Below are positions 52,454 through 63,805 of a DNA stretch of 64,000 bases, in pieces (the stretch's first letter is position 1; the number at the start of each line of letters is the position of its first letter). The notes beneath the pieces are model-generated. The model saw nothing but the letters and a program-made list of their open reading frames with translations, did not search any database and was not told the DNA's origin. This DNA is from Candidatus Thorarchaeota archaeon (GTDB lineage: Archaea; Asgardarchaeota; Thorarchaeia; Thorarchaeales; Thorarchaeaceae). Location: assembly GCA_046758445.1 (NCBI GenBank), contig JBHIAE010000011.1:1-64000 (forward strand), in the 5' to 3' direction. Position numbers and translations under genes: made by a program.

Positions 52454-52578
52454 TCTTTACCTAGGCCATTCGAGCTACATTCAATAATCTGCTGTGCGGT
52501 TCTCTAGTGTCGTGGTTCGATATCTCAAGGGACCTTCGAATCATGAGGCCCATTCGTTTCATACAGGGCGGTCTTAAC

Positions 52579-55203
52579 ATGAGTAGATCCGACAAGAAGG
52601 CTGACACACCGAGTACCATTGAGGCCATCCGGATGGCATCAGCATCAGTCATTGGAACGACTACGAACCTTGGCTATCCACTTGGAAGTGCAGTCGGCAC
52701 CGGCAGTATGATGGAAGAGAACTCGGAAACAGTGGCTATGAACATCGCCCCTCTGGTCTTCTCCATAAGGGATTCTTTGAGCGACGCTGAGGGACTTGAG
52801 CTATTGTCACTCGAATGGGATTTGGTACGCACCCCAGGCCCTGGAGTACTACCGGAACAGTTAGTGGTTGCGGGCGGGATATCGGAGGGTGTGGGCTCAC
52901 ATGTGGTTGTACTGAGCTGGGAGCGGGGCGTGGTTGATCCTTTCAAGATTGACACTCATATGAAGACTCTCTCAAAGAAGATTGCTGACATTGAGAGCGC
53001 TGTGATAAGCAATGGAATGAGCTATGAAACCCATGGACTTCCAATACTTCGGAGGTTCAACGACCGTCTTAATCGTGTGACATTCGTGGAAATGCTAGAC
53101 CGTCGATTTCAAGGATCTTGGGATTCGCTTCAGATCAAGCCTGAACATGTGGACAAAGAAGCAATGGTCACTGTGAACTTTCGAGATGACTTCACACTCC
53201 TTCCCCCTGGTCCTAAAATCACTGAGCGCACTCTCTTTGAGTTCCTCCTCCCGAGGGAGAAGGATGAGGCACTCCTGCGCCACTTCCCGCATCGAATTCT
53301 TACTCCAACCGGCCTGGAGGCACTTGCTGTTAAGGTGCCAGAAGCCGGAAGAGCAATTCTGAACGAACTAAACATGTACGCTTACAGCATAGAGGAGTAC
53401 GACATTGCTAAAGCCGCAATCAGTCTGTTCACTAAGTTCCTCGGGCGCGAAGAGGTTGGCTTAAGAGATACGGCAGATATCCAGCAGGAACTGAAGAAGT
53501 TCTCGGGCCTGCTGTCCGGAGCGGTTGATGATTTTAGCAGGATCGCCGAGGAACATGTAGGATCTGGAAAGACTCTCTCTCTGCCTGAACATAAGTCTGA
53601 GCTTCTCTCGGGGATAGAACTTCATGAAGATGATTTTGTAGGATTCCGTCGCTTTATTGCGGATGAACTTGTCGAACAGATGATGAAGTCATTTCAGCGA
53701 GAGTTCTTCGATGTTAGAGAGGTAAGGGCTTGGCGCCTAAGAAGTGCAACTACATACTTCATTATCTTCGCAAGGCGTGTCGCACAGTACTTCACAAATG
53801 AACTAGGTCAGTATATGCTAGTCACATCGGCTCGAAAGGCATTCTTGACAGCACTCCAAGAATTCCGAGATGAAACAAAATCCCAAGCCTCGGATGCCGC
53901 AAATGAGATACTCTTTGAGAAGTTCTATTCTGAGCTTAGAGCTCAGATGAATGCGATTCTTGACAAGAAGACCTACGAAGGACAAACGTACCAGCGATTT
54001 GACGATATGCTCCGGACGATTGATATAGAGATGACAGAGGCCTTCGGTCATATCGATATGTGGGACCTCATTAGCTTCAGTGACGTTGCCGGGATTGCCA
54101 GGGATGAGATTGCCAAGAAATACGCGATTGAACAGGGAAGTGAGGAGCTTCACAGTACTGGACAGTCAATGTCAGAAATCCTTGAGGCATTCGAGAATCT
54201 TGTTGTGGAAGTCATCCCTAACGTCGCAGACACTCTGCTATCAAAGCCACTTCTCAGGAAGACGATTGATCGAATAACAACTGAGAATGCAGATCTGATA
54301 AAGGAGCTTGCACAGTTCATTGAGAGGGGTACTCAGAAGTCTGATGTTTGGAAGGAGGAGGCCCGCTCTTGGATCAAGGCATACGCTGAGTCAGTTGACC
54401 CGCAAATGAGTGCACCTGAAGGCATTCTAGCCCTGTTGCGGTTTGTGCACACAAAGGTTGGTCTCGGTTCAACGGCACAGGCAATAGTGGATAAACTGAC
54501 TTCCGAGGCTGACCTACGCGAGCGTGCCTATCAGATGATTGTGGAGGAATGGGAGGAAACATGCAGCAGGTTTGAAGCTGAAAACGAGCCCATTCGAGAG
54601 AACAACAAAAAGCGGGAGGAGATGACTGCACAGACCGAGATTCAGTACAAAGAGGAGATGGCTCAATACGAATCAGAGATGGAGAAATACCGTCAGGACA
54701 TTGAGGCTGCAAGATTGTTGCCTGAAGATGAACCTCAGCCAGACATTGAGAAGCCTAAGAGGCCCACGTCCTTGGACGTAAGACTTGTCGAGATTAACAA
54801 TCTGTATCCTCATCAGGAAGAGAAACCTCTTCCACCCAAACCCGTAGCTCCACCTGAGATGTTCCACTACGTAGAGCTTAGGAATCTTTTGGCGGAGAAA
54901 CTAAGTAGACTGGACGAAGCCCAGGAACGAATGCAGTCGCTCTTTGCTGACCGACTTGAGAAGATGCAGTCTGATGCAGCCAAGGCTTCTGGAGAGGTAA
55001 GAATCGAGCTTGGGGATGACCTGCTTGAGTACCTCAGAGATTCTCGTATCCGAGGACTCAGTAGACTCATACCTCGAGCGAGTAGAGCATATCTACGAGA
55101 CCCAAAGAAGCCTGAGATAGTCTACCTGGTGACCTACGAACATAGCGGAAATGAGCTGACGGTTACGATAGGTGACAACTATCTCAGAGAAGGAGGTGCA
55201 TGA
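52579..55203 (+). CDS. Large alpha-helical/coiled-coil hypothetical protein
   Basis: ~875 aa open frame with a long charged coiled coil near the C-terminus; ATG 52579. Confidence 0.8.
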   Translation: MSRSDKKADTPSTIEAIRMASASVIGTTTNLGYPLGSAVGTGSMMEENSETVAMNIAPLVFSIRDSLSDAEGLELLSLEWDLVRTPGPGVLPEQLVVAGGISEGVGSHVVVLSWERGVVDPFKIDTHMKTLSKKIADIESAVISNGMSYETHGLPILRRFNDRLNRVTFVEMLDRRFQGSWDSLQIKPEHVDKEAMVTVNFRDDFTLLPPGPKITERTLFEFLLPREKDEALLRHFPHRILTPTGLEALAVKVPEAGRAILNELNMYAYSIEEYDIAKAAISLFTKFLGREEVGLRDTADIQQELKKFSGLLSGAVDDFSRIAEEHVGSGKTLSLPEHKSELLSGIELHEDDFVGFRRFIADELVEQMMKSFQREFFDVREVRAWRLRSATTYFIIFARRVAQYFTNELGQYMLVTSARKAFLTALQEFRDETKSQASDAANEILFEKFYSELRAQMNAILDKKTYEGQTYQRFDDMLRTIDIEMTEAFGHIDMWDLISFSDVAGIARDEIAKKYAIEQGSEELHSTGQSMSEILEAFENLVVEVIPNVADTLLSKPLLRKTIDRITTENADLIKELAQFIERGTQKSDVWKEEARSWIKAYAESVDPQMSAPEGILALLRFVHTKVGLGSTAQAIVDKLTSEADLRERAYQMIVEEWEETCSRFEAENEPIRENNKKREEMTAQTEIQYKEEMAQYESEMEKYRQDIEAARLLPEDEPQPDIEKPKRPTSLDVRLVEINNLYPHQEEKPLPPKPVAPPEMFHYVELRNLLAEKLSRLDEAQERMQSLFADRLEKMQSDAAKASGEVRIELGDDLLEYLRDSRIRGLSRLIPRASRAYLRDPKKPEIVYLVTYEHSGNELTVTIGDNYLREGGA

Positions 55204-55204
55204 G

Positions 55205-57649
55205 CTGTCAAGTTCGTGGGTAATCAAGACGCGGCAGATGTCTGAGGCAGGCAAGGAGCTTATTCTTCGTGAGGCATTGGCAGCTCACCTTAGGAGCTCT
55301 AGAGACCGACAACTTTTCACACAGATCGTACCTGACCAGCGTTCACTAGAGGACCTTCTCTCGGCCTTCGCATCTTTCTATCTCCAGAATTACATGGGTG
55401 TACGCCTTCACACCATAGAGGAAACTTTGGAGCTCACAATCGAGGAACAGGAGCAAAAGGCTATAGAGGATAGGGACCAACTCGAGCGTGAGATTCGCTT
55501 TCTATTCGGAAGGAAGCTTCCCGACGAAGTTGCGACCGAGAGCATCGTGAGTGAGTTTGTGGTCAGGTTCTGTGATGAACTCGGAAGCAGTAATCCTTCC
55601 GACCAAGAAACGGTGACTCGGGCACAGGACCTGATTAGGGAATATCTCGAAAAGATACCTGCTGAATTCTCTCCAAATCACGACATTGACTTTCTGAATC
55701 GCATCACCGGATCTGATTCAGCAATGCGGGAGGAGTTCTATAACAAAGCATCCGGCCTTAAGGAAACCGCGTTATCGCTGCGAAACGAACTCCTGCGAGA
55801 ACACGACTTCGAGGTTATCGAGATATCCGTCCTGAAGGAAGGCTTGAAGCGTATCTGGGGGGCTCCGAAATATGCCTCCTCTCACATTTCGACTTCGATG
55901 GTATTCCCAGCAGCCATTGCCGGTATTGCTTCTGAGGTTGCCAGTCATCTCTGCAAAGGACAGAAGGAAGTGGCAACAATCAAGAAATCTCACGAGATTC
56001 GCCTAGAACTGCTGGGTGTTCTGAAGGCTGTGCTACAGCGGCCAATCACATTGGATGAGTATGAAGATGCTTTGGTGAACAAACTGTCACAGAGCATAGC
56101 CTCAGCGATTGAAGAAGATCCAGATTCGACATTCGACCTGCTATCACATCTGATGCAAATCCCAGTCGTCGATATAGAGTCTGCGTTCAGGCGGAAGGGA
56201 CTGACAGACCCGGAAGACATTGCAAAAGGCCTTCGAATCACAAGAGCTGAGGTCGAGGAGAGAGCAAAGGATTCCGAGATCGATGAGGTCGAGATGGAGT
56301 ATCTAGAACGCTCACTCAAAGCGATTGACAAACTTGAGAACACACTTGAGAAACCGGTCAAGGGCATGTTGCGGTCACAGGGGCTCAGAGCATCTGAGCT
56401 TGACAAGTTCAATATTGAAACCCTTGTTAGGGACAGAGAGTCTCTCCTTGGCTTCGAGGTTCGTGTGCTGGAGGCTCTTGAGAAGAGGATACGCGTACCT
56501 CCACCTGAGGAAGTCAAGAGACTGCTGGATGCGAGAGAGAGAGTCCGTCAGGGGGCTCTCAGCTCAATAGGAGTTACTTCATCGGCCGATATGATACGGC
56601 ATCGGCGGCACGAAGAAACGATCGCATCCATCAAGCTTGACCTTGCATGGCTCTTCACATCAAGTATACTAACTAACATGGCTAGGATTGTGGAAACCTA
56701 CATCAGATCAAGGCAGGATCTTCTGCGCATTAAGGCGCTTCTGAAGAGCATCTACGAGGGAACAGAAACAGATCTCCAAGCTCTTCGTGTGGAAATCCTG
56801 ATTGACCTGGCATCGATGAGAATCTATGAGTTGAAGACAGTCTATCCAGAGCTGGGCGCGTCAGACATTTGCTCGTGGATACATGCACGTTTGTCAGATC
56901 AGGACATGACTGCTGCCAAAGCGGAGCTGGATGCAACTCCGAGTCCAGTTTTCGAAGGGGTCATAGATACTCCATTAGTGATGGACTCGCTAGAGTTTGA
57001 CAACTATGCCATTGCGTACGACATCATGCATCGTTTTCTCATAACTGAGAGGGGCAAGAAGATGGCAAAGGAAGAACTTGCACTCGAGGCCAAGTTAGAA
57101 GAACAACGGATTGCGGACAGCAAGAAGAGTTCCATAGACGTGTTGTCTTGGGTCTACACAAAGAGCCAGACTGTCTTTAGGGCCATTGGGCGTGTCGGTC
57201 CCAAAGGGCTGGAATGGACGCCAAATGATGATAGCAAGTGCGCCAATCTACTTTCGTACTATGTGAGGACGAGCAGAGGACGTAAAGTCTGCTCCTTATG
57301 CTGTGAAGCCCCAGAAGATGGCAAATGCAGAACACATGGCACCCGTGACATGATTCCGGGCAACGACATGGAGAACCTTGCAGTCTTCGTCAAGAGGTCT
57401 ATATCTGACATCAAGCAAGGTCTTCTTGGAGCGTCCGCTGAGCCCATGAGTCTAAGGGAGGCCCGTTCAATCGTGGACCGTGAGATAGGCGTGTTGAAAC
57501 GACAAGGCAAGCTTACATCCAAAACAAACTTGAAAGAACTGATGCCTGGCGAGATCAATCAGATTGTTGGACCTGCAATTGCGCGAGTCATTGGTAAGTA
57601 CTTTAACGACTCGCTGAATTACGCCGCAAGGAGCTACGATTACACCTAG
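55205..57649 (+). CDS. Large alpha-helical hypothetical protein with C-terminal CxxC...CxxH zinc finger
   Basis: ~815 aa; VCSLCCEAPEDGKCRTHG. SD GGAGGTG precedes CTG 55205 right after the upstream stop; the track uses GTG 55172. Confidence 0.8.
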   Translation: MSSSWVIKTRQMSEAGKELILREALAAHLRSSRDRQLFTQIVPDQRSLEDLLSAFASFYLQNYMGVRLHTIEETLELTIEEQEQKAIEDRDQLEREIRFLFGRKLPDEVATESIVSEFVVRFCDELGSSNPSDQETVTRAQDLIREYLEKIPAEFSPNHDIDFLNRITGSDSAMREEFYNKASGLKETALSLRNELLREHDFEVIEISVLKEGLKRIWGAPKYASSHISTSMVFPAAIAGIASEVASHLCKGQKEVATIKKSHEIRLELLGVLKAVLQRPITLDEYEDALVNKLSQSIASAIEEDPDSTFDLLSHLMQIPVVDIESAFRRKGLTDPEDIAKGLRITRAEVEERAKDSEIDEVEMEYLERSLKAIDKLENTLEKPVKGMLRSQGLRASELDKFNIETLVRDRESLLGFEVRVLEALEKRIRVPPPEEVKRLLDARERVRQGALSSIGVTSSADMIRHRRHEETIASIKLDLAWLFTSSILTNMARIVETYIRSRQDLLRIKALLKSIYEGTETDLQALRVEILIDLASMRIYELKTVYPELGASDICSWIHARLSDQDMTAAKAELDATPSPVFEGVIDTPLVMDSLEFDNYAIAYDIMHRFLITERGKKMAKEELALEAKLEEQRIADSKKSSIDVLSWVYTKSQTVFRAIGRVGPKGLEWTPNDDSKCANLLSYYVRTSRGRKVCSLCCEAPEDGKCRTHGTRDMIPGNDMENLAVFVKRSISDIKQGLLGASAEPMSLREARSIVDREIGVLKRQGKLTSKTNLKELMPGEINQIVGPAIARVIGKYFNDSLNYAARSYDYT

Positions 57650-57651
57650 GT

Positions 57652-57972
57652 CTATCCGTCCCTAACACTGCTCGATATCCATTCAAGGTAGTCAGAAGAC
57701 CCTCCGTCAACAGATACTACAACGAATTCAGGCACTTCATAGGGGTGATTGGCCTTGATAGCTTCCCAGAGTCGGTCCTCACTCTTCTTCTCTGTCTTCA
57801 TTAGAAGGATGGACTCTGCTTCATCCTCAATCTTTCCCTTCCACCAATAGAAGCTTCTCACTTCTTGGATAATGTTCACGCATGCACATGCTTTGGCTTC
57901 TACGAGTTTCTTCGCAAGTCCAGCAGACTTTGCCTGTGGGCAAGTGGTGAGTGCAAGGATGTGTTCTGGCAT
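57652..57972 (-). CDS. cutA: Divalent-cation tolerance protein CutA
   Basis: LVEAKACACVNI, SFYWWKGKIE, HPYEVPE, YLEWI. Confidence 0.95.
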   Translation of the reverse strand: MPEHILALTTCPQAKSAGLAKKLVEAKACACVNIIQEVRSFYWWKGKIEDEAESILLMKTEKKSEDRLWEAIKANHPYEVPEFVVVSVDGGSSDYLEWISSSVRDG

Positions 57973-58066
57973 GTGAGAATGGAATACTTGCCTCCTTAAA
58001 CGCATTTGCAGCGAACTTCCACGAAACGCCAATCTTATTATCACACTCGAAGTTCCTGTCTGTGCT

Positions 58067-58528
58067 GTGGGGAAGATGAGCCTAAGTTCGCCCTTAAGAC
58101 TAGCACTGCTGTTGGTCCTTGTCACACTCTTCGCACCATACTATATCGTTGAGCAGAATCTATTGGGTGGCTCCAGTCTTCACATTGTCGCACCTATCTG
58201 GACTATGGTTTCACATTCGGGGGGTCCGTTTACACTGGAGCTGCCATCGGGAATGACCATAGACTATGCCCCTCTATGGGGGCTAGGAATTGTGATGGCA
58301 TTCCTCGTGTTCTTTGCTGCGGATAGGAGAGAGATATCTTGGAGAGGATATCTTGTGATGGTCTTCATTCTCCTATTGATGCAGATTGCCTATCACGTGA
58401 TCATTGTCGTCCTGGCGATAGGAGGCCCACCCACGACATTCACATTCATACCACTAGTTGCCGTCATCGCTTTTGTTCTAACATCTGTGATAGACCGAGA
58501 GCAAGTATCAAGCTGGGAGAGCCCCTAG
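58067..58528 (+). CDS. Hypothetical membrane protein
   Basis: Four hydrophobic segments. Confidence 0.65.
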   Translation: MGKMSLSSPLRLALLLVLVTLFAPYYIVEQNLLGGSSLHIVAPIWTMVSHSGGPFTLELPSGMTIDYAPLWGLGIVMAFLVFFAADRREISWRGYLVMVFILLLMQIAYHVIIVVLAIGGPPTTFTFIPLVAVIAFVLTSVIDREQVSSWESP

Positions 58529-58737
58529 TATTTACGGAGCTCAAGTCAGAGCTTATCTTTGTGCTGCTTAATCTCCGACTCGTTTACACTTGGTGCGGTA
58601 GTATCGCTGGTTGGCACTTCTTGTGCTCGCCGACTTGGAGATAGTCCACTACATGCCGAAACCCTCACAATAATATATCGGACGCACAATATATGACTCA
58701 GTGCTCAAGCTGAAGATTGTCTGCTGGAGGAGTAGAT

Positions 58738-60456
58738 GTGGCAGTCGCGTTCATGGCCGCATTGGAGAAGTCTCCCGAAACCTACGACCATGAATTCGAT
58801 GCCGTTCTTGAAGGGCGTGCCAGTCAGATAAGGGAAAGAATCCTAGATCTTGTCAAACCAGGGATGAATGTGCTGGACCTGGGTTGTGGCACGGGCCTTC
58901 TGGCAACGGAGGCTGCAAAGAGAGAGGCAAGGGTGGTTGGTATTGATTCGAATCTGGAGATGATAGGGCTTGCCATAATACGGGCAGCAGGTTTGGACAA
59001 CGCCCCAGAGTTCTTGCATGGAGATGTTCTATCGTTTGGAGAGGAAGTTGGCACTGGAAGGCCTGAGAATGAATCTGGCCGATTCGACCTCATTGTGACC
59101 ACATTTCTGCTTTCGGAGCTCAAACCACCCCAGCGCGATCTCCTCATGCAGGTCGTCGGATCATTGCTGCGTGTTGACGGGATATTTGCAGTTGCAGCGG
59201 AAACTCTACCGAGTTCCTTCTCAGAAAGAAGGAGATTCTGGAGAAACAGAAGCCAAGCAGAAAGGCAATCGCGAAGGAGATTGCCCCGGCCTATCACCAA
59301 TTTGGACGAAATCGTAGAAGAAGCAGGGCTTGTCATTCTTGAAACTGAGAAGTATGGGTCAGAGATTACGTTCATTCAGGGTGAGGTCGGAAAGAGCCCC
59401 CCTTCCCTCACATATCGGACCAGAGCCAAAGCGTTCGAAGGTGTCAAGGCTAGACTAAGAACTTGGTACAATCATCTAACCGGCGGATGGCGTGGGATTC
59501 CAATCAAGCCTGGCCTGTATAAGTCGGGAGATCCGAAGCGCAACAGTCCTATCGTAGTGACAGCCAATTACGAACTGACCTATTATACAGTCATGCGCGC
59601 TCTGGCGAAAGAGAGAATCGATGCCTGGGTCCTTGTATGCGACACTGACGGTATTAACGTATGGTGCGCGGCGAGGGGGACGCACTTCGACAGTGAAGAT
59701 GTTATCCAGATGATGCGCCTGACTAGTTTGGGCGAACTAGTGGATCATAGAGAAATCATAATGCCACAGCTCTCAGCTGCCGGAATGGATCCTACGTTGA
59801 TTCGAGAGCGAACAGGGTTCAGAGTCCGTTATGGACCAGTCCGGATACAAGACCTCTCAGAGTGGCTTGCACTTGGAAAGCCCCGACCGAAGCCGAGGAA
59901 GATGGCAAGTGTGACCTTCAATCTGAGAGAGAGAATGGAACAGAGTGCAGCACACATTCCCTTCCTGTTCGCAGCTCTGCTTGGCAAACCGATCGCGGCC
60001 ATCTTGGGGATTCTTGCGGTTGTTAACATCTTGCTCTTTGTAGCTGTCCCACCAGCAATGACCTTATCGTACCCACTTACGCTTCAGATTCTTCTATTGA
60101 TAGCGGAGTTCATCGCAGCATTGGTGGGCAACGCATTCACCCTTGGTCTCTTGTTCCCCATTCTTCCTTCAAAGGGGAATTCCTTCTGGCGACGAGGGCT
60201 CGGACTTGCAGGAATCACTTTGCCGCTTGCCGCTGTCATCATGATAATGTTTGGGGTACATTGGACGTTGTTTGTTGTATGGATGGTTGTTCAATTGGTG
60301 ATGGCCACGTCCCTGACAATGGACTGGTCTGGAATGACATCAGTAAGTGATCCAAAGGTGATAAGAAGAGAGTATCCCTATATGATTCAGACTCTGAAAG
60401 TCGGTGTTGTCTTCATAGTAGTCTTTAACTTGGTAGTAGCTCTCTTGGGTTGGTGA
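58738..60456 (+). CDS. Class I SAM methyltransferase fused to HgcA-like corrinoid protein (CdhD-like domain + TM domain)
   Basis: VLDLGCGTG (SAM motif I). PGLYKSGDP..SPIVVTANY, DTDGINVWCAA, IMPQLSAAG, YGPVR, then ~4-5 TM helices. GTG 58738 follows GGAGGA. Confidence 0.88.
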   Translation: MAVAFMAALEKSPETYDHEFDAVLEGRASQIRERILDLVKPGMNVLDLGCGTGLLATEAAKREARVVGIDSNLEMIGLAIIRAAGLDNAPEFLHGDVLSFGEEVGTGRPENESGRFDLIVTTFLLSELKPPQRDLLMQVVGSLLRVDGIFAVAAETLPSSFSERRRFWRNRSQAERQSRRRLPRPITNLDEIVEEAGLVILETEKYGSEITFIQGEVGKSPPSLTYRTRAKAFEGVKARLRTWYNHLTGGWRGIPIKPGLYKSGDPKRNSPIVVTANYELTYYTVMRALAKERIDAWVLVCDTDGINVWCAARGTHFDSEDVIQMMRLTSLGELVDHREIIMPQLSAAGMDPTLIRERTGFRVRYGPVRIQDLSEWLALGKPRPKPRKMASVTFNLRERMEQSAAHIPFLFAALLGKPIAAILGILAVVNILLFVAVPPAMTLSYPLTLQILLLIAEFIAALVGNAFTLGLLFPILPSKGNSFWRRGLGLAGITLPLAAVIMIMFGVHWTLFVVWMVVQLVMATSLTMDWSGMTSVSDPKVIRREYPYMIQTLKVGVVFIVVFNLVVALLGW

Positions 60457-60462
60457 CAGAGA

Positions 60463-60789
60463 ATGACGATTGTTTTGGAAGATGTGGGCCTAGAGATTGA
60501 ATACAACCGCCAAAAGTGTAATCGCTGTGGCATATGCTTGGAGGTCTGCCCTTTTGGGGTCTGGGAGATGCCAGAAGAGGGGCCGGCAGTACTTGCAAGG
60601 ATTGAAAACTGCACAAATTGTACAGCCTGCGCCAAGAACTGTCTGGGCGGTGCAATAGCCGTCAGGAACATAGGTTGTGGATGTATTTGGAATGAAGCGG
60701 CACGGCGGCGTGGTGATTGTGAGGAGTCTGTTGTCAGAACCAGCAATTTAGAAACCGGTTCGCACGCCAGCAAATGTTGTTCAGACTGA
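60463..60789 (+). CDS. HgcB-like 2[4Fe-4S] ferredoxin with Cys-rich tail
   Basis: CNRCGICLEVCP, CTNCTACAKNC, IGCGC, terminal KCCSD; immediately downstream of the hgcA-like gene. Confidence 0.85.
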   Translation: MTIVLEDVGLEIEYNRQKCNRCGICLEVCPFGVWEMPEEGPAVLARIENCTNCTACAKNCLGGAIAVRNIGCGCIWNEAARRRGDCEESVVRTSNLETGSHASKCCSD

Positions 60790-60916: not shown

Positions 60917-62320
60917 TTGATGGCGAAGAAGTTCGTTCCTACAGGGGTCATGCCAGCTCTAGTCACTCCGTTTACCAAGGATGGAGACATTCTCGAAGAG
61001 GGCTTCGGGCAGGTAATCGACTACACAATCGGCAAGGGTGCCACGGGAATAGTCCCGGCTGGCACAACCGGAGAATTCTCGTATCTGCGCACCGAGGAAC
61101 GCAAGAAACTCCTCAAGCTGGCGGTCGAGTTTGTTGACGGTAGGGTGCCCATTGTGGCTGGCACGGGTCAACATAGCACGAGGGCAACTGTAGAACTTAC
61201 GAAGTACGCGGCTGACATAGGATGTGACGCTGCTCTTATCATCTCACCATTCTATCTGAGGCCAACAGACAAGGGATACTACGAACATTTCTCCACTGTC
61301 GCTAGAAAGGGGGGCCTACCCGTCATCCCTTACAATATCCCCCAATGCACTCTAGGTGTACTCAACTCCAACGTTTTGGAGGATCTCGCAGAACTCGATA
61401 GCATAGTGGGAATAAAGGACAGCAGTGGAAACATAGGCCACACCGTAGAACTAATCCAGAAGCTGAAGGGGAAGATGCCAGTTCTGATAGGGCACGATGA
61501 GTGCTTTCTCTCAGCAATTGCCGCCGGAGCAAGTGCTGCAATTCTCGCATCCGCCAATGTTATTCCCCACATCTGGCTAGACATCATGGAGAAGGTCAAG
61601 ACCGGGGATTTTGAGGGCGCTAGTGAACTTCAGCATAGTGCGCAGACACTTGCCAGGATTGTTACAAGAAATGGAGGAGCTCCGCCGGTCAAGGCAGCTC
61701 TGAAGATGATGGGAATTAAGGCAGGTAGGAGTAGGATGCCTCTGAATACTGGGGGAACGTTGACACTTGAAACAAGAGAGGAGATTCGTATTGAGCTCGA
61801 GAAACTTGGCGCAATTGAGAGTCTGAGTCATCCTCCGCTTGACGCGAACATCGATATTGGAAGTGTTCTGCATGATATGGGCGTAGATCTGGGTAGCAAA
61901 TCTGGCCTTGCATTTGGACGCGGATCAAATGACTCAGTTTCTGTAAGCATTGCTGCAGGTCCGAAGGGCGGTTCCCTGGGACCTGCATTTGTAAAGCTCC
62001 TGACGACTCCGAAGATTGGCCATGAGGCGTTGACAGTGATTCTGGAACCGAATCTCCAAGTCTTACCTTCAAGCATCATGTTGCCGACAAAACAGATTCA
62101 GTCAATGCGGCAGGCATCTTTGTTCTATGGGCCTGTCCAATCTGGAGCTGCGCGGGCGGTAGCACTTCATGTCGAGGCTGGTAAGATTCCAAAGCAGTTC
62201 TTGCGTGACCAAGTAATCATTATGGCAATTGACATGGATATGAACACAAGAGAACGTAGAGTGGTACGAGCAGCCACCGAGGACGCAGTATCTGTAGCCC
62301 TTGGGCAGATATGGAGCTGA
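60917..62320 (+). CDS. DapA/NAL-family class I aldolase fused to a degenerate Fae domain
   Basis: ALVTPF, GTTGE, YNIP, GIKDSSG. C-terminal GPKGGSLGPAF..GHEALTVILEPNL..YGPVQSGAARAV is Fae-like. Confidence 0.85.
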   Translation: MMAKKFVPTGVMPALVTPFTKDGDILEEGFGQVIDYTIGKGATGIVPAGTTGEFSYLRTEERKKLLKLAVEFVDGRVPIVAGTGQHSTRATVELTKYAADIGCDAALIISPFYLRPTDKGYYEHFSTVARKGGLPVIPYNIPQCTLGVLNSNVLEDLAELDSIVGIKDSSGNIGHTVELIQKLKGKMPVLIGHDECFLSAIAAGASAAILASANVIPHIWLDIMEKVKTGDFEGASELQHSAQTLARIVTRNGGAPPVKAALKMMGIKAGRSRMPLNTGGTLTLETREEIRIELEKLGAIESLSHPPLDANIDIGSVLHDMGVDLGSKSGLAFGRGSNDSVSVSIAAGPKGGSLGPAFVKLLTTPKIGHEALTVILEPNLQVLPSSIMLPTKQIQSMRQASLFYGPVQSGAARAVALHVEAGKIPKQFLRDQVIIMAIDMDMNTRERRVVRAATEDAVSVALGQIWS

Positions 62321-62326
62321 TAAGAC

Positions 62327-63805
62327 ATGACTAGTGAGGAATATCGGTTCAAAGGGGTTTATCCTGCACTTGTCACTCCCCTTGATGACAGCGGCGTGAA
62401 CGAGGAGCAATACAGGAATCTGATAGAATACACACTCAGCAAGGGTGCAACAGGCCTTGTTCCATGCGGGACAACTGGTGAGTTTACTAGCATGAGGTTC
62501 GATGAGAAAGTTGAGGCTATTAGAATCGCATGCGAAGCAGCGCAGGGTCGTGTTCCTGTCCTCGCAGGAACTGGCGCTGCATACACGAATGATGTCATCA
62601 AGCTCACACGTCGGGCGGCTGAGTTCGGAGCAGCAGCAGCTTTAGTTGTTTCCCCATACTTCCTCAAACCCTCAACCAAGGAAGTATACGAGCATTTTGA
62701 GAAGATAGCAAACACAAGTGAGATTCCCATCATCATATACAATATTCCGCAGGTGACAGGAGTCAATCTTGACTGGTGGCTGATCGATGGTCTTCGGGAG
62801 ATAGACAATATCATCGGACTCAAGGACTCAAGTGGCAATCTTGTAAATCTAACAACGGTACTGGTGAGGAGACCCGACGACTTTCAGGTGATGGTTGGTC
62901 ATGATGAAGTTGCGCTTCCAGCTCTAGCATCTGGATGTGATGGAGCCGTTCTTGCGAGCGCGAACGTGTTTCCTGACAGATACCTCCGCCTCCAGGGTGC
63001 GCTTGCCGTAGGAAACCTGAAGGATGCTCTCATCATTCAGAGGAGCATACAGAAGACGGTGCGAATCATTGTCAATAGAGGAGGAGGAATGGCTGTGAAG
63101 GCCGCTTTGAACATGATGGGAGTCCATGTCGGTAAAGCCCGACCTCCGTTGCATGAAGGAGATCTCCTTCGCTACGAGGACATTGATGAGCTCCGTACCT
63201 GTCTAGAAGACTTGCAGCTGATCGAGAGGGGTCCTGTTACTTTCAAAATGGGCGAGGAGTCCATAGTGGCCGAGAGCTACCCAAAGGCCAAGGGGCTTGT
63301 CCCGGATGAGATTCCTGATATCACTCTGCTTCATGGTGAAGCACTTGCTGGTGAGGGACAGGAAGTCGCCCACGTAGATTTGGTGATGGGAGTCCGAAAC
63401 GGACCAATGAAGGAAGTTTTCGAGCACGCTGGGAAACTTATCGAGGGATTCCACTCCTCCACTGTCATAAAGGACATTGAGCCCACAACGGTGTTTGCGC
63501 CCACTGTTACTATCACAAGCGAGAAGCAGAAGAGAATGGTCTTTGAAGTTGCGCAAAAAGCTGTGGCAGATGCTGTCGTTCGAACAGTCACAGACGGCAT
63601 TATTCCAGAGGAGTTGGTGCCCGATCTCGTCATCGCTGCAAACGTGTTCGTACATCCAACGGCAGTCAACTCCAGACGTGTACATATCAACAACTTTAGA
63701 GCTGTCAGGTTTGCAATTAGGCGGGCTATTGAGAACAGGCAGTCTGCCGATGAGATCATAGCCAGAATAGAGTCCGCGAGGCATCCCTTTGCATACAACC
63801 CATAG
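62327..63805 (+). CDS. DapA/NAL-family class I aldolase fused to Fae (formaldehyde-activating enzyme) domain
   Basis: GTTGE, YNIP, GLKDSSG. C-terminal GEALAGEGQEVAHVDLVMG, AQKAVADAV..DGIIP, NVFVHP, RHPF. Confidence 0.9.
   Translation: MTSEEYRFKGVYPALVTPLDDSGVNEEQYRNLIEYTLSKGATGLVPCGTTGEFTSMRFDEKVEAIRIACEAAQGRVPVLAGTGAAYTNDVIKLTRRAAEFGAAAALVVSPYFLKPSTKEVYEHFEKIANTSEIPIIIYNIPQVTGVNLDWWLIDGLREIDNIIGLKDSSGNLVNLTTVLVRRPDDFQVMVGHDEVALPALASGCDGAVLASANVFPDRYLRLQGALAVGNLKDALIIQRSIQKTVRIIVNRGGGMAVKAALNMMGVHVGKARPPLHEGDLLRYEDIDELRTCLEDLQLIERGPVTFKMGEESIVAESYPKAKGLVPDEIPDITLLHGEALAGEGQEVAHVDLVMGVRNGPMKEVFEHAGKLIEGFHSSTVIKDIEPTTVFAPTVTITSEKQKRMVFEVAQKAVADAVVRTVTDGIIPEELVPDLVIAANVFVHPTAVNSRRVHINNFRAVRFAIRRAIENRQSADEIIARIESARHPFAYNP

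Follow-up and report, generated by a model that had tools for sequence, protein, structure and literature searches.

Known HgcAB systems and the Thorarchaeota locus

Among the closest described relatives of the system considered here are the mercury methylation proteins HgcA and HgcB. S-adenosylmethionine (SAM) has been reported to be the methyl donor of purified HgcAB, and Cys73 and the C-terminal Cys pair of HgcB have been described as crucial for methylation (PMC11588087). The hgcAB genes of Pseudodesulfovibrio mercurii ND132 have an ArsR-like regulator that responds to arsenic and S-adenosylhomocysteine (SAH) (10.1101/2022.10.17.512643). HgcA-like genes have also been reported from Asgard archaea, with Lin et al. 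(2023) placing some Asgard sequences in a "fused HgcAB" subtree built from an alignment whose first 327 columns were trimmed, so that an N-terminal domain would be hidden (PMC10083202). Why microbes carry HgcAB and how its cobalt becomes methylated are open questions with environmental weight. Here, a gene pair is described from positions 1 to 64,000 of contig JBHIAE010000011.1 (hereafter the window) of a Candidatus Thorarchaeota archaeon (assembly GCA_046758445.1): one gene joins a SAM-dependent methyltransferase to an HgcA-like corrinoid and membrane protein, and the next encodes an HgcB-like ferredoxin.

An earlier reading made from the letters of the window alone (the sequence-only reading) had proposed such a pair as a corrinoid methylation module, pointing to SAM as the donor of HgcAB and to the presence of hgcAB-like genes in Asgard genomes, both in line with the reports cited above. 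The analysis presented below indicates that the pair probably forms a three-function module, in which the ferredoxin would reduce the corrinoid to Co(I), the fused domain would methylate it from SAM, and the methyl group would be passed to a thiophilic metal(loid).

Domain organization of the fusion protein

In the list of open reading frames (ORFs) of the window, a single uninterrupted frame spans 58717-60456 (+). The N-termini of the full-length homologues all read MAV(A/V)(F/Y)M and match the GTG codon at 58738 (alignment A1), and GGAGGAG is located 5 nt upstream of this codon; the GTG is therefore taken as the true start, as the sequence-only reading had placed it, and the gene call on record for the window likewise gives 572 aa. 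The AT-rich stretches listed in Table 1 sit 40-65 nt 5′ of this start and are possible TATA-like promoter elements.

Table 1. Coordinates of the fusion gene, the ferredoxin gene, their sequence features and neighbouring genes in the window
Feature	Position	Strand	Details
Fusion gene, CpaM-like SAM methyltransferase and HgcA-like corrinoid/membrane protein	58738-60456	+	GTG start, 572 aa and stop
AT-rich stretches ATAATATAT and AATATAT, possible archaeal TATA-like promoter elements	58671..58697	+	read from the sequence
Shine-Dalgarno-like GGAGGAG	58726..58732	+	5 nt before the GTG start; read from the sequence
Class I SAM methyltransferase domain, CpaM type	58747..59358	+	aa 11-214 of P0001; NF043040, 127-130 bits
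SAM motif I, DLGCGTG	58876-58896	+	aa 54-60
Corrinoid-binding domain, homologous to the C-terminal domain of the CFeSP large subunit CdhE/AcsC	59488..59871	+	aa 258-385
Cap-helix motif NVWCAARG	59656..59679	+	aa 314-321; Cys317 codon 59665-59667
Membrane domain, five long helices	59923..60444	+	aa 403-576; AlphaFold2 secondary structure
HgcB-like 2x[4Fe-4S] ferredoxin	60463-60789	+	108 aa and stop; 6 nt after the fusion stop; Pfam Fer4 families
Ferredoxin cluster motifs CNRCGICLEVC and CTNCTACAKNC (CX2CX2CX3C)	60517-60549, 60610-60642	+	C19-C29, C50-C60
Ferredoxin GCGC	60673-60684	+	aa 71-74
Ferredoxin CC	60775-60780	+	aa 105-106
Overlapping ORFs	52507-55203, 55172-57649	+	898 and 825 aa
CutA1 divalent-cation tolerance homologue	57652-58125	-	Pfam 113 bits
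DapA-Fae gene, first	60917-62320	+	Pfam DHDPS 246 bits, Fae 87 bits
DapA-Fae gene, second	62327-63805	+	TIGR00674 224 bits, TIGR03126 128 bits

Pfam assigns methyltransferase families to aa 33-209 of the fusion protein and CdhD/PF03599 to aa 264-374 (E 1.6e-20), and the NCBIfam model NF003195 covers aa 261-385. The N-terminal third scores 127-130 bits with the corrinoid protein-associated methyltransferase family CpaM (NF043040; cut-off 180), followed by the next methyltransferase family at 42 bits, a lead of more than 80 bits. This supports the proposed likeness to corrinoid-associated methyltransferases, which in other lineages are indeed encoded by a separate gene. For the protein as a whole, the best NCBIfam matches are HgcAB_like NF043039 (210 bits; cut-off 285) and HgcA NF040863 (183 bits; cut-off 275); as yardsticks, the canonical HgcA of Desulfovibrio caledoniensis scores 435 bits, and the Chloroflexota fusions reach 281 bits with CpaM.

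The SAM-binding motifs of the class I domain are intact, comprising DLGCGTG and an acidic D77; residues G56, C57, G58, G60, and D77 are invariant in A1, whose sequences are 31-69% identical, and the fold resembles those of SAM/SAH-bound methyltransferases (Foldseek). The cap-helix motif NVWCAARG was found to be invariant in 121 of 121 retrieved homologues. Compared with the consensus N(V/I)WCA(A/G)GK, and with NVWCAAGK in canonical HgcA, the fusion keeps the Cys and the NVWCAA core, but its last two residues are RG instead of GK. As in HgcA, a C-terminal multi-helix membrane domain is present, and it contains a conserved loop whose invariant columns in A1 are T534...G539...P546-I549-E552-P554. 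The AlphaFold2 model of the fusion, calculated with A1, has a mean predicted local distance difference test (pLDDT) value of 82.6 and a predicted template modelling score of 0.77. Among its structural neighbours, Foldseek ranks the HgcAB model 9a0b_A first, followed by SAM/SAH-bound class I methyltransferases and the corrinoid iron-sulfur protein (CFeSP) structure 2ycl_A, with no entry among the 50 matches listed combining both halves. Thus, the methyltransferase, the HgcA-like part with its cap Cys, and the membrane domain are all present in one ORF, as had been read from the letters.

Distribution of the fusion and linkage to CpaM

A protein search returned 364 clusters (90% identity), and the fusion is counted in more than 360 of them; the best 120 are all 550-585 aa long and contain both domains. 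Among these 120, annotated merely as "methyltransferase domain-containing protein," members from Thorarchaeota/Sifarchaeia are 58-69% identical to the window's protein, and those from Loki/Promethearchaeota and from Hod-, Hermod-, and Odin-labelled metagenome-assembled genomes (MAGs) are 31-34% identical; a Loki-type query added at least 386 further clusters with the fusion, its top 120 hits all being MAG, metagenome, or unnamed records. At E <= 1e-50, the fusion was detected in 93 of 301 sampled Asgard genomes, in 40 of the 90 of high quality, and in 5 of 13 from the window's genus, and it is also carried by complete chromosomes (L015, L053). Because it occurs in hundreds of independent assemblies, the fusion is neither a chance product nor a misassembly, which answers the question of whether it is real. 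Nor is it special to one locus: it is the defining trait of a large Asgard clade, and Chloroflexota, Poribacteria, and Desulfobacteraceae have comparable fusions.

A survey of 80 loci from species-representative genomes revealed several permutations of the same parts (Table 2). The CpaM profile matched at 130 bits or more, in a fused or adjacent position, in 44 of 45 non-canonical loci, and was absent at all 37 canonical GK hgcA loci, with no match there above 49 bits. A vestigial methyltransferase in the N-termini of canonical HgcA was looked for with the CpaM profile and rejected (hmmsearch --max; E ~1 or worse). At one canonical locus, in a Bacteroidaceae MAG, a generic class I methyltransferase gene (L087:5292-5951; 49 bits to the CpaM profile) is located directly 5′ of an NVWCAAGK hgcA; this is the sole canonical locus with a notable methyltransferase match nearby.

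Table 2. Architectures of HgcA-related loci in the survey
Lineage or locus	Architecture	Cap motif	Ferredoxin
Asgard	methyltransferase-HgcA fusion and separate ferredoxin	NVWCAARG	101-120 aa, ends ...CCG
Chloroflexota	methyltransferase-HgcA fusion and separate ferredoxin	NVWCAAGG	short, without Cys tail
Poribacteria and two other bacterial MAGs	methyltransferase-HgcA fusion	NVWCAAGE / NVWCAAGG	separate; two MAGs end ...GCG, Poribacteria without Cys tail
Desulfobacteraceae	triple fusion methyltransferase-HgcA-ferredoxin	NVWCAACG / NVWCAARG	fused
L069, L090	separate CpaM beside fused HgcAB-like protein	NVWCAAGG / NVWCAAVG	fused
Canonical hgcA (38 loci in clade; 37 with GK ending)	no methyltransferase	NVWCAAGK	separate HgcB

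The window's own genome (3.25 Mb, 92.7% complete) contains three paralogous modules in three fusion states. The window module shows a 2+1 arrangement, that is, the fusion and a separate ferredoxin. A second module, on contig C4 (92751-94718; L007:1489-3456), is a 655-aa CpaM-HgcA-like-ferredoxin triple fusion scoring 247 bits with CpaM and 356 bits with HgcAB_like, and is thus a bona fide NF043039/NF043040 protein. The third, on contig C1 (L008:273-2145, minus strand), consists of three separate, close-packed genes for CpaM (218 aa), an HgcA-like protein (327 aa), and a ferredoxin (74 aa); its cap reads NVWCGSRG, its ferredoxin has no Cys tail, and it sits on a very divergent long branch, grouping with a Hodarchaeota locus (L055). 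The three states in one genome are a natural Rosetta-stone series for a functional unit. Ordinary CdhD/CdhE genes occur elsewhere in this genome, and these CFeSP genes imply that some corrinoid supply is available.

Two further observations concern arsenic genes of this genome. The triple fusion on contig C4 is located about 10 kb from a gene for the arsenite methyltransferase ArsM, and the arsenite efflux gene Acr3 is represented only by a fragment (C17:13590-13876) with two in-frame TAG codons, which may be a pseudogene or a hint of stop-codon recoding. Stop-codon recoding has been reported for some Asgard lineages.

Phylogenetic position

Trees were built on the corrinoid and membrane domains, with Asgard CdhE as the root. 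Canonical HgcA proteins group in a single clade, with a Shimodaira-Hasegawa approximate likelihood-ratio value of 100 in a quick tree and support of 100/100 in a more careful one. The Asgard NVWCAARG proteins form a clade of their own (88 in the quick tree; 92/91 in the careful tree) outside canonical HgcA. In the careful tree, canonical HgcA, the Asgard clade, and the Poribacteria-type fusions are grouped weakly (88/80), and a clade of HgcAB-like and Chloroflexota proteins stands apart (99/96). An arrangement with the Asgard clade forced together with the HgcAB-like/Chloroflexota clade was not rejected by the approximately unbiased (AU) test (p 0.095), and a sister relationship of the Asgard clade to canonical HgcA is therefore not claimed. 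As judged from its sequence, the Asgard fusion is a distinct lineage, related to HgcAB but lying outside it and not canonical HgcA. The description of the protein as a full HgcA in the family sense consequently falls, since the module scores below the HgcA, HgcAB-like, and HgcB cut-offs and is placed outside the canonical clade.

The sub-clades of the methyltransferase tree match those of the HgcA-domain tree. The methyltransferase tree was rooted with the genome's other methyltransferases; because these outgroups scatter on long branches and the deep nodes lack resolution, it is usable for sub-clade congruence only.

The HgcB-like ferredoxin and its predicted complex with the fusion protein

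Of the specific NCBIfam models, those that match the ferredoxin best are HgcAB_like, over its ferredoxin tail (53 bits), and HgcB NF040864 (50 bits; cut-off 99). In an alignment with 13 partners from Asgard archaea, 11 canonical HgcB proteins, and 6 bacterial ferredoxins that accompany other fusions, C72 of the window's ferredoxin aligns with the GVGC Cys of canonical HgcB, that is, the Cys73 equivalent. The Asgard partners keep both cluster motifs and this HgcB-aligned Cys inside an invariant GCGC-W, and the C105-C106 pair is conserved in at least 90% of them; the Chloroflexota partners have neither a Cys73 equivalent nor a C-terminal CC. The HgcB-like features pointed out from the sequence, including CTNCTAC, GCGC, and CC, are accordingly present, but the CC, which had been called terminal, is not strictly so, since two more residues (S-D) follow it.

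In a structure prediction of the fusion-ferredoxin complex, the interaction prediction score from aligned errors (ipSAE) was 0.70, compared with 0.00 for the best of three controls. Of solved complexes, 58 of 80 reach the 0.70 mark, as do 2 of 110 mismatched pairs; as a calibration, these counts are approximate because the prediction included SAM and two clusters as ligands and used custom alignments. The runs share at least 70% of their contacts, and the ferredoxin has a pLDDT of at least 70. The predicted interface is formed by Cys317, Arg320, a PQLSAAG loop, and the conserved loop 535-556 on the fusion side, and by GCGC and the two cluster motifs of the ferredoxin. As a prediction, the model lends support to binding of the ferredoxin to the fusion protein.

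Proposed mechanism and the evidence bearing on it

The mechanism that we infer for the gene pair is as follows. The HgcB-like ferredoxin would dock on the corrinoid-binding domain and the conserved membrane-domain loop and reduce the corrinoid, with Cys317 as its ligand, to Co(I). SAM would be bound by the fused CpaM-type domain, which would methylate Co(I), giving CH3-Co(III), a reaction that would be chemically that of the SAM-dependent reactivation of methionine synthase, used here as the main route. At the membrane face, the four non-cluster cysteines of the ferredoxin (C72, C74, C105, and C106) would then present a thiophilic acceptor to which the methyl group passes; the likeliest candidate is a soft metal(loid) ion, for example Hg(II) or As(III)/Sb(III). 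The principal argument is the strict and ancient co-occurrence of the CpaM domain with the Cys-cap corrinoid part in all fusion permutations, which suggests that the two act on each other. The proposals of the sequence-only reading that the fusion ties SAM to corrinoid methylation and that the substrate may be other than Hg are plausible, and the ArsR and Acr3 genes beside relatives agree with a metal(loid) role.

Several points weigh against this mechanism. Every family score of the module is below its curated NCBIfam cut-off, and the cap segment 316-322, which includes the proposed cobalt ligand, has a pLDDT below 50 in the AlphaFold2 model. No CobS was detected in the 92.7%-complete genome, and a bona fide ArsM is already encoded there (C4:82256-83002; 313 bits). 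The window contains no ArsR, Acr3, or other metal gene except for a divergent CutA1, and its copy of the module lacks the ArsR regulator present at most orthologous Thorarchaeota loci. The chief reservation is that purified canonical HgcAB uses SAM without a class I methyltransferase domain (PMC11588087); SAM-to-cobalt transfer thus does not strictly require a dedicated domain, and the role of CpaM could be a different one. No assay of any member of the CpaM-associated lineages was found in the literature searched.

Alternative functions

Among more specific or divergent explanations, the one that holds up best is a corrinoid-dependent enzyme for methylation or detoxification of arsenic or antimony, with As(III)/Sb(III) as the acceptor, although we consider it a tentative proposal. 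In five of six orthologous Thorarchaeota loci, an ArsR/SmtB gene abuts the fusion, lying 0-6 nt upstream on the same strand; these neighbours score 63 bits, above the cut-off, and carry a CVC metalloid-site motif. In three Loki-type loci, ArsR is followed by Acr3 (281 bits), the fusion, the ferredoxin, and then a 145-aa protein rich in Cys and one further conserved ORF. The ArsR genes beside the Asgard fusions parallel the ArsR-like hgcAB regulator of P. mercurii ND132, through which canonical hgcAB itself is tied to an arsenic response (10.1101/2022.10.17.512643), and the four free cysteines of the ferredoxin would suit As(III). However, an ArsR/SmtB regulator does not specify arsenic, since such regulators sense many soft metals as well as SAH, and the linkage to Acr3 is found at just 3 of 20 Asgard loci. 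The window is without ars genes, and its genome has a normal ArsM and only the broken Acr3 fragment.

That the pair is a functional mercury methylase, equivalent to HgcAB with a built-in SAM-loading domain, is less likely still. The cap-helix Cys, the membrane domain, and an HgcB-like partner with the Cys73 equivalent and CC tail are conserved; the careful tree places the Asgard clade, albeit weakly, with canonical HgcA and not with the HgcAB-like clade; and 8 of 20 Asgard loci have an ArsR-like gene no more than 1.6 kb upstream, as do many canonical ones (14 of 35), compared with 3 of 18 other CpaM-clade loci. On the other hand, the HgcA and HgcB scores fall far short of the respective cut-offs, and the former also of a true HgcA, the cap ends in RG rather than in the strictly conserved GK, the proteins lie outside the fully supported canonical clade, and placement with the HgcAB-like clade was not rejected by the AU test. 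In addition, the single tested non-canonical relative does not methylate Hg (PMC10083202).

A corrinoid centre acting on a non-metal substrate, for instance in reductive halomethane dehalogenation or in passing a methyl group to a membrane-located organic, lipid, or thiol acceptor, appears slightly more doubtful again. The native function of HgcAB is still an open question, heterologously expressed HgcAB dechlorinates CCl4 according to a 2026 preprint (10.64898/2026.04.26.720869), and the membrane domain is strongly conserved, but a fused SAM methyltransferase would be superfluous for a dehalogenase, and metal(loid)s are suggested by the tail of the ferredoxin, conserved and rich in Cys, and by the neighbouring metalloregulator genes.

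Least probable is direct methylation of the final substrate (or of a protein or cofactor) by the class I domain, with the corrinoid and ferredoxin having a different role, such as in redox chemistry or in activating the substrate: small-molecule nucleophiles are the usual targets of class I methyltransferases (Foldseek neighbours) and canonical HgcAB uses SAM without such a domain (PMC11588087), but the CpaM linkage, strict and ancient in archaea and bacteria whether fused, adjacent, or triple-fused, and the matching sub-clades of the two trees are most simply explained if both parts interact.

Gene neighbourhood

Upstream of the window module are an unannotated 153-aa membrane ORF and the divergent CutA1 gene, and downstream of it are two DapA-Fae fusions. 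An ArsR gene or remnant 5′ of the window's fusion was searched for with 10 ArsR neighbours against positions 57000-59000 and was rejected (tblastn; best E 0.18), and the best genome-wide ArsR match is weak and located on a different contig. A functional link of the module to the wider window was likewise rejected, as unrelated genes (AOR, arginase family, aminotransferase, MBL, and DapA-Fae) occupy 40-58 kb and 60.9-64 kb.

The CutA1 homologue has an N-terminal extension of ~55 aa, and its start may be over-called. In each of the tandem DapA-Fae genes, an aldolase domain of the DHDPS/DapA family is extended at its C-terminus by a formaldehyde-activating enzyme (Fae) domain; such a pairing is unusual and may connect aldol chemistry with the handling of formaldehyde and tetrahydromethanopterin. 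The two long overlapping ORFs further upstream match no Pfam family (at E <= 1e-4 / 1e-3) and encode glutamate- and leucine-rich, possibly coiled-coil Asgard proteins. In the Loki-type ArsR-Acr3 loci, the small conserved protein encoded 3′ of the HgcB-like gene (L023:8151-8588, L026:8054-8344, and L027:3260-3580) has no family match and contains CC-rich N-terminal motifs (e.g., ...SCCGSSNSCC...), making it a candidate metallochaperone.

Implications for the HgcA superfamily

A large natural family of SAM methyltransferase-HgcA-like fusions provides independent genomic support for the finding that SAM is the methyl donor of HgcAB. Among the lineages sampled, canonical HgcA alone is without such a methyltransferase domain. 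A speculative evolutionary scenario is that SAM loading by CpaM was ancestral to the HgcA superfamily, with the Asgard pair keeping an ArsR-controlled detoxification function based on metal(loid) methylation, and canonical HgcAB being a derived form that lost CpaM and kept SAM as the donor. If true, this scenario would explain the "unexpected" SAM dependence of HgcAB and indicate a native, non-mercury function of mercury methylases.

The family also offers single-polypeptide methyltransferase and corrinoid constructs with a cognate ferredoxin for in vitro tests of methyl transfer from SAM to cobalt to metal(loid). In metagenomic surveys of hgcA, Asgard fusion genes should not be counted as those of mercury methylators without evidence.

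Comparison with known systems

With canonical HgcA/HgcB, the Asgard module shares the Cys-ligating cap helix (NVWC...), the CdhE-type corrinoid domain, the C-terminal membrane domain, a separate 2x[4Fe-4S] partner with a Cys73 equivalent and C-terminal CC, and a frequent ArsR-type gene upstream. It differs in its fusion to CpaM, found at 0 of 37 canonical loci, in the RG instead of GK at the end of the cap, in the CTNCTAC and GCGC of its ferredoxin instead of C(M/I)ECGAC and GVGCA, in scores far under the cut-offs, and in its position outside the canonical clade.

CFeSP (AcsC/AcsD, equivalent to CdhE/CdhD) and its methyltransferase MeTr have a homologous corrinoid domain (PF03599, NF003195) and follow the same logic of transfer from a methyl donor to Co(I) and on to an acceptor, with an Fe-S centre for reductive activation. 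However, CFeSP is soluble and without a Cys ligand, and a TIM-barrel methyltransferase loads it from methyl-tetrahydrofolate or methyl-tetrahydromethanopterin. Like the fused domain, ArsM is a SAM methyltransferase of class I; its substrate is a thiol-bound metalloid and it is found in ars contexts, but it has no need of a corrinoid, and ArsM models score only ~21 bits on the fusion. In the reactivation module of MetH and in cobalamin-dependent radical SAM methylases, SAM methylates Co(I) after one-electron reduction by flavodoxin or ferredoxin. The folds of the MetH activation domain and of the radical SAM enzymes are unrelated to that of a class I Rossmann methyltransferase, and the likeness is a functional analogy only.

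A further close counterpart is the pair of CpaM (NF043040) and HgcAB-like protein (NF043039) of the "fused HgcAB" clade, which likewise unites a Cys-cap corrinoid membrane protein with a ferredoxin and with a class I SAM methyltransferase of its own; a literature search found no paper naming a CpaM-type corrinoid protein-associated methyltransferase. In the module described here, the methyltransferase, and not the ferredoxin, is joined to the HgcA-like part, and the separate ferredoxin has HgcB-type cysteines that are absent from the fused tails and from the Chloroflexota partners. The module also scores below both cut-offs (210 of 285 and 127 of 180 bits) and forms a distinct clade. Overall, the combination of CpaM with an HgcA-like protein is of a kind catalogued in NCBIfam, and the Asgard form differs from it in which parts are fused, in the invariant RG end of the cap, in the kept HgcB-type cysteines, and in ArsR control.

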